From Chlamydiales bacterium (GTDB lineage Bacteria; Chlamydiota; Chlamydiia; Chlamydiales; VFKH01), in NCBI GenBank assembly GCA_031292375.1, contig JARLHF010000021.1, forward strand, positions 1,785 through 65,784: 64,000 nucleotides of DNA, given 5' to 3'. Under the pieces are notes generated by a model that was not told where the DNA came from, did no database searches, and worked only from the letters and a program-made list of their open reading frames with translations. How positions within the stretch are numbered: the first letter of the stretch is position 1; every line of letters starts with the position of its first letter. Shown here piece after piece: positions 50,183-62,381 of the stretch. Position numbers and translations under genes: made by a program.

Positions 50183-51961
50183 ATGACTAAAGCTGATACC
50201 ACGCAGGAGCTCTCATCTGTGTTACATGTGCTTTCATGGATATTTCCACACGTATGGACGATGAGGCGTCGATTAATAGGCGCATTACTTCTTGTGGTTG
50301 TTGCTGTAGGAATATCTATTACCATTCCCTATATCTTCAAGATGATTATCGATCATTTTTCTTATACACATCAAGAGTCTTTTTTGATTCTTGGGATATT
50401 GTTGTGTGCTTATGGGACTGGTTGGATGATGAGTCAAATGATGAATCAACTGCGTATGTTGGCTATGTATAAAATTTTAGAGCGTGGAAAGAGATCTCTT
50501 TCTATGTCAATTGTTGAAACTTTGCTGTCATTATCAGCACGGTTTCATGCTGAAAGGCAAACAGGAGCGCTTACAAGTTCTATTGAAAAGGCCCAAAATG
50601 GCTTTGATAGTATATTTTGGGGTATTTTGCTTTTTTTATTACCGGTGCTTCTTGAACTTATGCTTGTTTTAGTTATAGTGAGCGTTTTGTTTGGTTTTTT
50701 GTATGGTCTTGCAATTTGTGGTGGTATCTTAGGGTATTTATGGTTGAATTATCTCTCTTTGGCTAAAGTTACAAAACTGCAGATGCAGCATAATGAAACT
50801 TGTGCTCAAGCAACAGCGCGTATTGTTGATAGTTTATTAAATATTGAAACAGTGAAATATTTCGCACACGAAATGTATGAGAGCTCTCAAATAAATCAGC
50901 TTTTACATACTCAAGAGCAGATGGCAGTAAAACGATGGATGCGAGATTCTTATCTTCAATTAGGTCAAATGTTTATGATAGGTATGGGGCTTTTATGTGC
51001 CACGCTATTTACTGGTCATGAAGTTCATTTGGGTACGATTAGCCTTGGATCATTTCTTTTAATTAATTCTTATCTCTTACAATGCATTATGCCGCTTAGT
51101 AATATCAATTATATTGTTTATCAGGTGCGTAAAGGCATTCAAGACATGGTTTCTGTTACAACTCTGCTGAATACTAAGCCAGAAATAGTAGATAGGAGTG
51201 CACCTCATACGATAATTTTCAAAAAACCAGAGCTGGTTTTTGATCAAGTATCATTTGGATATGCCTCAGAGCGCATGGTCCTTAAAAATATTTCGTTTGT
51301 ACTGCCTTCAGGGACCACTCTTGCAATTGTTGGATCAAGTGGATCGGGTAAATCTACTATAGCTAAGCTTATCTTTCGATTGTATGATGTGACTTCTGGT
51401 TGTGTTCGACTTGATGGTTTTGATATTCGTGAATTGCAAGGCTCTTTTCGCAAACAAATTGGCATTGTTCCCCAAGATACTATTTTGCTTAATGATACGC
51501 TATATCACAACATTAGGTATGGTAACTTAGAGGCATCTAGAGAGGATATATATCATGCTGCTACACTGGCGCAGTTGGACCCTTTAATTCAGTTATTGCC
51601 AAAAAAATATGATACAGTTGTGGGAGAGCGAGGAATTAAATTATCAGGGGGTGAAAAGCAGAGGATTGCTATAGCAAGACTTCTACTTAAAAAGCCCTCT
51701 CTTTATATTTTTGATGAAGCTACATCTTCACTTGACTCTGGTACGGAGCGAGAAATTCAACAAAACATATGTAAAATGTCAGCGAACTCAACAACGCTGA
51801 TTATTGCACATCGTCTTTGTTCCGTTGTTCATGCTGATAAAATCATTGTGCTTGAAGATGGTCAAATTATTGAACAGGGAGGGCATATACAGCTGTTACA
51901 AAAAAATGGGCTTTACAGTAGAATGTGGAGTAGGCAGCAGCAAAGCGAGCATGCGCTTTAA
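50183..51961 (+). CDS. ABC exporter, fused permease-ATPase half-transporter (ATM1/HMT-like)
   Basis: 6 N-terminal TM helices. Walker A GSSGSGKST, signature LSGGEKQRIAIARLLLK, Walker B LYIFDEATSSLD. 592 aa. No N-terminal C39 peptidase domain. Confidence 0.88.
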   Translation: MTKADTTQELSSVLHVLSWIFPHVWTMRRRLIGALLLVVVAVGISITIPYIFKMIIDHFSYTHQESFLILGILLCAYGTGWMMSQMMNQLRMLAMYKILERGKRSLSMSIVETLLSLSARFHAERQTGALTSSIEKAQNGFDSIFWGILLFLLPVLLELMLVLVIVSVLFGFLYGLAICGGILGYLWLNYLSLAKVTKLQMQHNETCAQATARIVDSLLNIETVKYFAHEMYESSQINQLLHTQEQMAVKRWMRDSYLQLGQMFMIGMGLLCATLFTGHEVHLGTISLGSFLLINSYLLQCIMPLSNINYIVYQVRKGIQDMVSVTTLLNTKPEIVDRSAPHTIIFKKPELVFDQVSFGYASERMVLKNISFVLPSGTTLAIVGSSGSGKSTIAKLIFRLYDVTSGCVRLDGFDIRELQGSFRKQIGIVPQDTILLNDTLYHNIRYGNLEASREDIYHAATLAQLDPLIQLLPKKYDTVVGERGIKLSGGEKQRIAIARLLLKKPSLYIFDEATSSLDSGTEREIQQNICKMSANSTTLIIAHRLCSVVHADKIIVLEDGQIIEQGGHIQLLQKNGLYSRMWSRQQQSEHAL

Positions 51962-52041
51962 ATAAAGATTTAAATAAGAATTGAAAAAAATCTCGTAAAG
52001 GTATACAACCTTCTGGAAAACAATAAGAAGGTGGTTTTGTT

Positions 52042-61431: not shown

Positions 61432-61457
61432 GTAGAAAATTTTAACAAATTATAGCT

Positions 61458-62381
61458 TTACGACGCAAGGCGTACTTGGTTGCGTCCATGTATTTTTGCT
61501 TCATAGAGAGCCTCATCTGCGTCTTGTAATAATAATTCAAGGCGAGGTTTTTCAGGGGCAAGCATAGCAACTCCAGCGGATATAGAGATATGAATAATGC
61601 CTTTTGTGGTGATAAAAGGAGTTTTTGAGACATTTAAGCGGATTTTTTCTGCTACGGTGCTTGCTTGATTTAAAGAAGTGTTAGGCAAGAGAATAGCGAA
61701 TTCTTCACCACCAAAGCGAATAGATAGATCGTAGCTCCTCTGCGTTTTAAGGATGAGCTCTGCAAGTTGCACAAGCACTTCATCTCCAACTAAATGGCCA
61801 TAGAGATCATTGACTTCCTTGAAGTGATCTATGTCGATCATGAGAAGAGAGAGAGGTAGTTTGCCTCTTATGGCTTTATCAATTTCTTTTCTGCCGTGGT
61901 CATAAAGAACATAGCGATTGTAGAAATTAGTAAGAGGATCATGCTCTGCAAGTCTTTTTAGTTTTTGAGAAAATGAAGTAAGCTCAAGTACGATATTTTT
62001 ATGGTGCTCTGCAACCATGATAGCCGCATGAATTGCATGAGGAGAGAGGGGGTGATATAAAAAATTTGTAACACCACCATCGAGTGCTTCCTTTGCAAAT
62101 AGTGGATCATATTCGCGCATAATAAGGAGTATAGGAAGATAAGAAAAGCGCTTGTGAGTTTTAACTTGCTTGCATAGTGTAAATCCCAGAGCTTCTCCAG
62201 GAGCATGGTCGACGATCATAAAATCAATTTTTAGATTGCAAAGGGAATTAAGAGCTTCTTCTGTTGAGGCTACATCGATGATTTTATATGTTTGTTCAAG
62301 TAAGTCTTTAACTTGCTGTTTTATCTCTTGCTCTTTTATTGCAATAAGAAGAGTGGGTAGTGGATCTTGTTCTATCAACAT
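61458..62381 (-). CDS. diguanylate cyclase with degenerate N-terminal receiver domain (REC-GGDEF)
   Basis: 307 aa. GGEEF active site (RFGGEEFAILL) with an RSYD I-site 5 residues upstream. The REC-like N-terminus keeps MIVD but lacks the DD pair (LLIAIKEQE) and the conserved Lys (FLYHPL). Confidence 0.85.
   Translation of the reverse strand: MLIEQDPLPTLLIAIKEQEIKQQVKDLLEQTYKIIDVASTEEALNSLCNLKIDFMIVDHAPGEALGFTLCKQVKTHKRFSYLPILLIMREYDPLFAKEALDGGVTNFLYHPLSPHAIHAAIMVAEHHKNIVLELTSFSQKLKRLAEHDPLTNFYNRYVLYDHGRKEIDKAIRGKLPLSLLMIDIDHFKEVNDLYGHLVGDEVLVQLAELILKTQRSYDLSIRFGGEEFAILLPNTSLNQASTVAEKIRLNVSKTPFITTKGIIHISISAGVAMLAPEKPRLELLLQDADEALYEAKIHGRNQVRLAS

Follow-up and report, generated by a model that had tools for sequence, protein, structure and literature searches.

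A putative class I lanthipeptide cluster in a Chlamydiales genome: missing canonical accessory genes, a zinc-less LanC paralogue and a linked membrane-anchored AAA+ ATPase

The DNA analysed here, a 64-kb stretch of a Chlamydiales bacterium contig (GenBank assembly GCA_031292375.1, contig JARLHF010000021.1; referred to as the window), carries five closely spaced lan genes on its minus strand (53914-60356), encoding the precursor LanA, two LanC proteins, a LanD-type flavoprotein and a LanB dehydratase. All five open reading frames (ORFs) are intact and have good ribosome-binding sites, that of lanA being a GGAGG 7 nt upstream of the ATG. A gene for a membrane-anchored AAA+ ATPase converges on lanB and is preceded, on its own strand, by an ABC half-transporter gene; upstream of lanA are genes for an LplA-like protein and an orphan REC-GGDEF protein (Table 1). 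An original prediction made from this DNA had claimed that no canonical lantibiotic protease, exporter, immunity or two-component genes adjoin the operon and that the leader/core junction of LanA is not a LanP site. We followed up these claims with a Pfam scan of every window ORF of at least 120 aa, with a second assembly of the window locus (L001), which reaches ~6.9 kb past the right end of the window, and with 15 related loci (L002, L006, L010, L014-L018 and L026-L032). The 64-kb window and the ~6.9 kb to its right were thereby covered, the left end of the contig and the remainder of the genome lying outside this scope. At least two of the genomes that carry clusters of this family are chlamydial metagenome-assembled genomes (MAGs); a genome-collection scan with LanB as the only query gave no match.

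Both domains of a class I dehydratase are present in LanB, Lant_dehydr_N (PF04738, 8.8e-150) for glutamylation and Lant_dehydr_C (PF14028, 1.4e-49) for elimination. Alignment of the canonical LanC to MadC and NisC revealed intact AHG, WCYG and CHG motifs, with His228, Cys298, Cys344 and His345 (MadC 8BYK numbering) all retained, that is, the catalytic His and the Cys-Cys-His zinc ligands. With such a LanB and a LanC that has its catalytic residues, the locus is, as judged from sequence, a class I lanthipeptide biosynthetic cluster. The closest NCBIfam model of LanD is the CoaC half of CoaBC, and its score against the RiPP (ribosomally made peptide that is modified post-translationally) decarboxylase model is 29.6 bits against a cut-off of 215. 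This HFCD flavoprotein is encoded in one operon with a LanA whose core ends in ...SFCC, and lanD is kept in register in all long related loci; the putative role of LanD is to convert the C-terminal Cys, by decarboxylation, into aminovinyl-cysteine (AviCys). The predicted product is a 22-residue peptide with nisin-like A and B rings and an epidermin-like C-terminus.

Table 1. Features of the lan locus in the window and corresponding arrangements at related loci
Locus	Feature	Coordinates	Strand	Description
Window	LanA precursor	60156-60356	-	66 aa; PF02052 Gallidermin 1.5e-12
Window	LanA leader	60225-60356	-	residues 1-44; contains YDLDL box
Window	predicted LanA core	60159-60224	-	residues 45-66, 22 aa; ITSRSLCTPGCGNTGTNNSFCC
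Window	zinc-less LanC paralogue	58800-60101	-	433 aa, directly downstream of lanA; LANC_like 1.5e-38
Window	canonical LanC cyclase	57473-58762	-	429 aa; LANC_like 1.8e-58, MadC match 1.6e-62
Window	LanD-type HFCD flavoprotein	56904-57476	-	190 aa; PF02441 4.3e-27
Window	LanB dehydratase	53914-56925	-	~991-1003 aa, depending on start codon; both dehydratase domains
Window	membrane-anchored AAA+ ATPase	52042-53904	+	620 aa; convergent with lanB, stop codons 9 nt apart
Window	AAA+ transmembrane hairpin	52459-52635	+	~residues 140-198
Window	AAA+ Walker A	52813-52836	+	GPAGVGKT
Window	ABCB-type half-transporter	50183-51961	+	592 aa; ABC_membrane and ABC_tran, no peptidase domain
Window	orphan REC-GGDEF (PleD-like) protein	61458-62381	-	upstream of operon; GGDEF 1.7e-46, Response_reg 9.8e-09
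L002	AAA+ gene			divergent from lanA
L014	AAA+ gene			adjoins lanC-lanD
L015	AAA+ gene			lanA-lanB-AAA-lanC, one strand
L016	AAA+ gene			lanC-AAA-lanC-lanD, one strand
L017	AAA+ gene			convergent with lanA(x3)-lanC-lanB-lanC-lanD, window-like; 34% identity
L018	AAA+ gene			divergent from lanC
L031, L032	AAA+ gene			directly upstream of lanA
L002	zinc-less LanC orthologue	476-1783		
L006	zinc-less LanC orthologue	3310-4530		
L010	zinc-less LanC orthologue	7034-8395		
L014	zinc-less LanC orthologue	510-1835		
L017	zinc-less LanC orthologue	17122-18450		

The LanA precursor scored 48.1 bits, above the cut-offs of both PF02052 (21) and TIGR03731 (29.3). Its leader/core junction was set so that the Cys of CTPGC lies six positions after residue 1, a register that agrees with the precursors of nisin (SPR↓ITSISLCTPGC), epidermin (EPR↓IASKFICTPGC) and Priestia megaterium pBM700 (DPQ↓ITSVSLCTPGCGDTGSWNSFCC). 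The window leader ends in ...AAPGEKPGVNEL, that is, in ...GVNEL ahead of ITSRSLCTPGC, so that Glu-Leu and not Pro-Arg precedes the core. Among 13 precursors of the same family, collected from protein and metagenome searches, position -1 is Leu in 10, position -2 is Glu or Gln in nine and position -3 is Asn in six, and Pro-Arg is found at the junction of none. The core is identical at 21 columns across six of the 13, and the loci with this near-invariant core span 26-47% GC, which argues for purifying selection and for a specific, non-LanP cleavage site. The predicted cleavage site thus appears to be conserved and not of the NisP/EpiP type, in agreement with the original prediction, and, as also proposed there, another protease must therefore act. 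A P1 Leu followed by Ile or Val at P1' would suit generic subtilisins and thermolysin-like enzymes as well as HtrA/DegP-type proteases, which prefer an aliphatic P1. A cut after Arg48 (ITSR↓S) was considered and rejected, because the conserved ring A would then be destroyed. Precursor number varies within the family: L017 encodes three different LanAs (18579-19408), L014 has a second, shorter LanA (2-61 and 246-425) with the core ITSRNELCTNCC, and in L010 (67-13424) two lan clusters lie back to back.

One of the two LanC copies has lost its catalytic residues, a feature that the original prediction did not include. When the protein encoded directly after lanA was aligned to MadC (8BYK), Ile, Trp, Ser and Asn were found in place of His228, Cys298, Cys344 and His345, of which the first is catalytic and the other three are zinc ligands (PMC9889658). 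Orthologues of this zinc-less paralogue (31-47% identity) occur in L002, L006, L010, L014, L016, L017, L029 and L030, usually directly after lanA, and were found in every locus long enough to show one, except L027. The zinc-less and canonical proteins form separate orthologous groups, with identities of 31-47% within a type and 25-30% between types, and the window, L002, L006, L010, L014, L016 and L017 each encode both. L027 has the canonical LanC only, yet lanD is present, so the zinc-less copy is not strictly required wherever LanD is found. Since class III cyclase domains also lack the zinc ligands yet are functional (PMC9889658), either a catalytic or a scaffolding role of the zinc-less LanC is possible.

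The absence of canonical accessory genes was borne out within the DNA covered. No Peptidase_S8 domain was found among the window ORFs of at least 120 aa, in the ~6.9 kb beyond the right end of the window or in the 15 related loci. Among the window ORFs, the same scan revealed no ABC ATPase and ABC-2 permease set that could represent LanFEG, no histidine kinase with an OmpR-type response regulator adjoining the operon as LanRK, no NisT-type exporter, and no ABC exporter at all other than the half-transporter. The sole histidine kinase of the window is KdpD (28313-30934), which belongs to a kdp operon 23 kb from the lan operon. The possibility that canonical lanP, lanT or lanFEG genes lie just outside the window was addressed with L001, whose extension encodes GidA, a CoaD-like protein, a TPR protein, a methyltransferase and four proteins that gave no confident Pfam match; no S8 protease, ABC gene or LanRK pair was found over these ~6.9 kb. 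Across the related loci, a single ABC gene was seen, encoding a stand-alone nucleotide-binding subunit and lying upstream of lanA in L027, and regulators were limited to a helix-turn-helix gene in L006 and a LuxR gene in L027. As a control of the method, the same approach displayed lanT, lanFEG, a further ABC pair and a response regulator/histidine kinase pair in P. megaterium pBM700. LanI has no reliable profile, and the scan therefore does not bear on small immunity proteins; ORFs below 120 aa and the two proteins without Pfam match at 47478-48260 and 48326-49075 are not assignable in this way.

The lack of canonical genes therefore appears, from the comparison of loci, to be a family trait and not a local accident. 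The missing protease alone is ordinary, since protease genes are missing from about one third of lanthipeptide cluster regions (PMC8960859) and pBM700 also lacks lanP; the absence is to that extent less remarkable than originally presented. It is the joint lack of LanT, LanFEG and LanRK that sets the chlamydial family apart from its Firmicute relatives. The REC-GGDEF protein was rejected as a LanR or other regulator of the cluster; it scores below the cut-off of the PleD model (NCBIfam) and is not conserved with the cluster, none being found at the other loci. The content of the window gives no hint of autoinduction. Genes without an equivalent in the window were noted at two related loci: PF00144 beta-lactamase-fold proteins of the serine hydrolase/DD-peptidase type are encoded inside the lan clusters of L002 (1-455) and L014 (4963-6393), and in L014 a 1083-aa penicillin-binding protein (PBP_dimer and Transpeptidase, 11534-14785) adjoins the AAA+ gene. 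These are possible candidates for a leader peptidase or for cell-wall-related immunity.

The AAA+ protein consists of a disordered, Ser-rich N-terminus, a transmembrane hairpin, a module resembling the first nucleotide-binding domain (NBD1) of ClpB and a long C-terminal coiled coil. Hydropathy places the two hydrophobic segments of the hairpin at residues ~140-170 and 175-198, the AlphaFold2 (AF2) model has helices at 137-172 and 179-204, and the NBD1-like module begins ~20 residues past the second hydrophobic helix. A phmmer search of the PDB matched residues 216-574 to Hsp104, ClpC and ClpB at ~1e-22, and the top Foldseek match was ClpB NBD1 (4hse, 1.3e-13). Walker A (GPAGVGKT), Walker B (LALDEIH) and the Arg pair (ARRF) are invariant in the family. 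The 620-aa protein has neither a second ATPase ring nor a Clp N-domain and ends after the coiled coil, and it is for this reason not a member of the Clp family; its NCBIfam scores are ~90-99 bits against Clp cut-offs of 885-1232. As the hairpin immediately precedes the ring on its N-terminal side, the ring's entry face would abut the membrane, as in membrane-protein extractors such as FtsH or Msp1. The window encodes another ATPase, of the AAA_14/DUF4143 type (22590-23831), which has no relation to this family.

Gene context ties this ATPase to the lan genes. In nine of ten readable contexts (the window, L002, L014, L015, L016, L017, L018, L031 and L032) the AAA+ gene adjoins lan genes, and in L015 and L016 it lies inside the lan operon, with genes overlapping or closely spaced. 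It is the most consistently lan-linked non-biosynthetic gene of the chlamydial family. The lan-linked AAA+ proteins share only 23-50% identity and occur in five different gene arrangements, so the linkage has outlived repeated rearrangement, which argues for a functional tie. Promoter and terminator scans of the window locus were uninformative: promoter-like sites were rarer than in shuffled sequence, and the gap between the ABC and AAA+ genes contained no terminator. The sole terminator-like hairpin downstream of lanB (53861-53874, minus strand) falls within the convergent AAA+ gene, at the 3' end of its coding sequence, and the lanB and AAA+ transcription units may for that reason overlap.

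Several observations weigh against a dedicated role of the AAA+ protein in the pathway. The residue at the position of the ClpB pore-loop Tyr is non-aromatic in eight of eight members (Asn, Gln, Gly or Pro), which weakens a role in peptide threading. The family is large: an exhaustive hidden Markov model (HMM) profile search returned 343 representative clusters at E<=1e-30, most of ~650 aa and aligned end to end. The earlier view of a small family of about ten members was withdrawn on this result, together with the argument from rarity. At least one member is not lan-linked, being encoded in a 'Chlamydiae bacterium' MAG (L020) with no lan genes within 10 kb. The contexts sampled are few and favour the nearest relatives. 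No AAA+ gene was seen in the available DNA of L006 and L027, two lan loci with some flanking sequence. The 1061-aa L020 member (9548-12733) joins the transmembrane-hairpin AAA+ module to a complete USP/UCH deubiquitinase domain (1.3e-25); a thermolysin-like M4 peptidase is encoded nearby (6858-8375). USP domains occur in four of 67 sampled members, relative P0012 has a UCH match (5.8e-7), and P0013 contains a U-box-like segment with weak support (E 0.16-0.28). Such fusions suggest that the family may act in the host cytosol and not at the bacterial membrane. The C-terminal extension of P0008, which had been taken as papain-like or OTU-like from its Cys and His motifs, is not relied on here, as it gave no sequence match in the PDB.

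The strongest competing reading is that the AAA+ protein is a type-III-secreted inclusion-membrane (Inc) protein facing the host cytosol, whose link to the lan genes reflects a shared mobile or co-regulated island and not a function within the bacterium. We judge it a serious contender, falling somewhat short of probable. The published in-silico Inc criterion is two helices separated by <30 residues (PMC3048545), and the hairpin has this form by both hydropathy and the AF2 model. The protein has no signal peptide, 19 of its first 30 residues are Ser, Thr, Pro, Asn, Gln or Gly with no charged residue among them, and the N-terminus is Ser/Thr-rich and disordered in several members; the long coiled coil fits as well. 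Ubiquitin-related domains would be of use only in a setting that contains ubiquitin, and expanded families of ubiquitin-related effectors are a known trait of environmental chlamydiae (PMC4209131). However, a transmembrane hairpin is not specific to Inc proteins, and most family members lack any ubiquitin-related domain. The position of the AAA+ gene inside the lan operons of L015 and L016 argues instead for a function shared with the cytoplasmic enzymes, and an inner-membrane protein working with the pathway, which we keep as an open reading, fits that position. The amoeba host and the inclusion membrane that were brought into the original prediction are assumptions, since the source is labelled only 'Chlamydiales bacterium'.

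The ABC gene is separated by 9 nt from a DUF3419 gene that precedes it and by 80 nt from the AAA+ gene that follows. Its description as convergent with lanB was correct, but placing it 'two genes away' treats as a spacer the single gene in between, which is the lan-linked AAA+ gene. In a similar manner, 'ATM1-like' agrees with its best PDB match, NaAtm1 (2.4e-120; McjD is not among the 60 best PDB matches listed), but undersells its kinship. No NCBIfam model reaches its cut-off, and homologues at 40-52% identity number in the thousands; of the three close ones with readable context, two (L034 and L035, 50-52% identical over the full length) are lasso-peptide exporters. In L035 (70-4501) the ABC gene is followed by lasso B (transglutaminase-like) and lasso C (Asn-synthase-like), and in L034 (4408-9680) lasso B, lasso C and four precursors (...LTLG↓KQGGSLEG...) precede it. 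The 1.4 Mb contig that carries L034 has many ankyrin-repeat genes, suggestive of an intracellular bacterium.

A second reading would make this ABC protein the dedicated LanT of the cluster, recruited from a RiPP-exporter lineage, in which case the claim of a missing transporter would be wrong. Its architecture is NisT-like (six transmembrane helices and a nucleotide-binding domain, ~600 aa, no peptidase domain), and the proximity to the lan-linked AAA+ gene and the kinship with McjD-like lasso exporters point the same way. On the other side, no ABC homologue is found near any other related lan locus, and a genuine class I LanT, that of pBM700, aligns only over the nucleotide-binding domain (35% over 317 aa). 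The ABC gene is moreover tightly coupled to the unrelated DUF3419 gene within a long co-directional housekeeping array, and the third close homologue (L033) also lies among housekeeping genes. Without conservation in the family and with this coupling, the ABC gene may be a bystander. We therefore regard recruitment as LanT as possible but rather doubtful; as originally proposed, the protein appears, on present comparisons, not to be a conserved, dedicated LanT. Because of its kinship with RiPP exporters and its position just upstream of the lan-linked ATPase gene, we put it forward, tentatively, as the best local candidate for inner-membrane export.

The reading that we prefer, and hold as a whole with moderate confidence, is that chlamydiae have a conserved family of class I lanthipeptide clusters, to which the window locus belongs as an intact member and which does without LanP, a NisT-type LanT, LanFEG, LanI and LanRK and carries instead a zinc-less LanC and a single-ring, ClpB-NBD1-like AAA+ protein. 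The family is described by the observed gene content, residue substitutions, junction conservation and gene linkage; for the product, the order of steps, the exporter, the class of protease and the dispensing with immunity genes we propose the following course. LanB, the canonical LanC and LanD would modify LanA in the cytoplasm, and the leader would stay on until the peptide is outside the cell envelope. There, an unlinked protease would remove it by cutting after the conserved Leu in N-(E/Q)-L↓(I/V)-T-S. With the leader kept until outside, and with an outer membrane present, LanI and LanFEG could largely be dispensed with. In the window genome, the adjacent ABC half-transporter would most plausibly carry the peptide across the inner membrane; its clade includes RiPP (lasso) exporters and its gene probably shares a transcription unit with the AAA+ gene. 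The AAA+ protein would be functionally tied to the pathway, with a role that could lie in transport, membrane handling or peptide delivery.

The gap might also be ordinary, the locus being a minimal biosynthetic core for which unlinked housekeeping genes supply export, leader removal and any immunity, with the ABC and AAA+ genes as bystanders by chance or shared descent. The frequency of clusters without a protease gene, the lack of lanP in the closest Firmicute comparator (pBM700), the absence of the ABC gene from other loci and the two lan loci without an AAA+ gene are all in line with it. It is nevertheless unlikely, for shared descent alone is insufficient to account for an AAA+ gene that stands beside lan genes in nine of ten readable contexts, through five arrangements and down to 23% identity, and in two cases inside the operon with overlapping or closely spaced genes. 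Still less probable is that the cluster came from a Firmicute by horizontal transfer and is now decaying, without making a product. LanB and LanC are closest to Firmicute enzymes (MadC, 1.6e-62; P. megaterium LanB, 32% identity), and for the Parachlamydia cluster a Firmicute origin was put forward by Marsh et al. (PMC3091789). However, the five ORFs are intact with good ribosome-binding sites, the GC content is the same as in the surrounding DNA, neither tRNA genes nor flanking repeats point to an island, and many divergent loci show this architecture again, with a near-invariant core peptide, so that we give this reading hardly any weight.

Our preferred reading of the AAA+ protein as a partner of the pathway can be joined with the Inc-like features, in that an inclusion-membrane motor with its ATPase ring in the host cytosol would be functionally coupled to the lanthipeptide. 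Such a motor might, for instance, draw the peptide with its leader through the last membrane, or pass it on to host or fused papain-like proteases. We consider this combination improbable; if true, a lantibiotic system would have been re-engineered for intracellular life, and the peptide could act on bacteria sharing the host cell.

Dedicated outer-membrane routes were sought among the more distant secretion genes of the window. An RND efflux system with an outer-membrane factor (32480-38333) consists of OEP (32480-33955), an AcrB-like protein (33952-37092) and a membrane-fusion protein (37089-38333), and is adjoined by a PapA/condensation-domain acyltransferase-like gene (30997-32346). A type II secretion/pseudopilin block (18348-22411) includes T2SS protein F, small proteins, one of them with an N-methylation motif, and DUF1494. 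Neither is supported as a dedicated route, both being generic, distant and not conserved near related clusters, with the exception of one pseudopilin-like (DUF1494/T2SSJ-like) gene two genes from lanA in L002. Elsewhere in the window lie a Fic-domain protein (41818-43209) and a 1865-aa RHS-repeat protein (1654-7251; PF05593, 1.4e-33), likely a polymorphic toxin, with a small ORF (1173-1646) after it.

Chlamydial lanthipeptide clusters are, as seen here, commoner than the passing mentions in the literature would suggest (PMC3091789, PMC11317633), and form a recurrent family with a near-invariant nisin/epidermin-like core. The membrane-anchored ClpB-like ATPase and the zinc-less LanC are candidates for new accessory proteins of class I lanthipeptide biosynthesis. 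If these partners do handle export, delivery or ring formation, the family would show how an intracellular bacterium with two membranes makes and releases a lipid-II-type antibiotic without self-harm. The conserved N-(E/Q)-L cleavage motif, together with the gene set, provides a concrete recipe for heterologous reconstitution.

Among known systems, the annotated but uncharacterised pBM700 cluster of P. megaterium QM B1551, the nearest relative found on a plasmid, has nearly the same core (ITSVSLCTPGCGDTGSWNSFCC, compared with ITSRSLCTPGCGNTGTNNSFCC in the window), and likewise has lanB (32% identity), lanC and a lanD flavoprotein and lacks lanP. In contrast to the window, its operon includes lanT, and the cluster also has lanFEG, a further ABC pair and a response regulator/histidine kinase pair; it has a single LanC and no AAA+ gene, and its leader ends in Pro-Gln instead of Glu-Leu. 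Epidermin/gallidermin of Staphylococcus and mutacin 1140 share with the window the 22-residue core, the CTPGC ring B, the C-terminal ...NS(F/Y)CC, a LanD-type flavoprotein and the ring register, whereas they have one LanC and no AAA+ gene. Leader removal in these clusters is by an S8 LanP of their own, with cleavage after Pro-Arg or Thr-Arg, and LanFEG/H immunity proteins and regulators are encoded as well.

Within the chlamydiae, Marsh et al. (2010) described a class I LanABC cluster in Parachlamydia acanthamoebae Hall's coccus, with LanB and LanC related to Firmicute enzymes (PMC3091789). By the published description it comprises only LanA, LanC and LanB, with no mention of an AAA+ partner, a second LanC or LanD, and its LanA was grouped with Bacteroidetes precursors and not with epidermin-like ones (PMC3091789). 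A lanthionine synthetase gene has also been noted in one newer chlamydial genome (PMC11317633). An ATPase partner, a second LanC and the junction are absent from both accounts, and in the literature searched we found no report of an AAA+ protein or a zinc-less LanC as a lanthipeptide partner; the link between the AAA+ family and lanthipeptide clusters thus appears to be new.

The AAA+ protein resembles the NBD1 and middle domain of ClpB, Hsp104 and ClpC in fold, Walker A, Walker B (DE), the Arg pair (RRF) and the coiled coil after the small subdomain, and differs from them in having one ring, a hairpin in place of the Clp N-domain, no conserved pore-loop Tyr and NCBIfam scores far below the Clp cut-offs. 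The ABC half-transporter is likewise close to McjD-type lasso exporters, as represented by the L034 and L035 proteins, whose genes have lasso B and C genes and lasso-like precursors as neighbours, whereas no lasso B or C genes were found in the window scan and the best match of the half-transporter among solved structures is Atm1. The window cluster is thus of a known kind, that of the class I gallidermin family, and what is new is its lineage-specific set of accessory genes and its conserved non-LanP cleavage motif.

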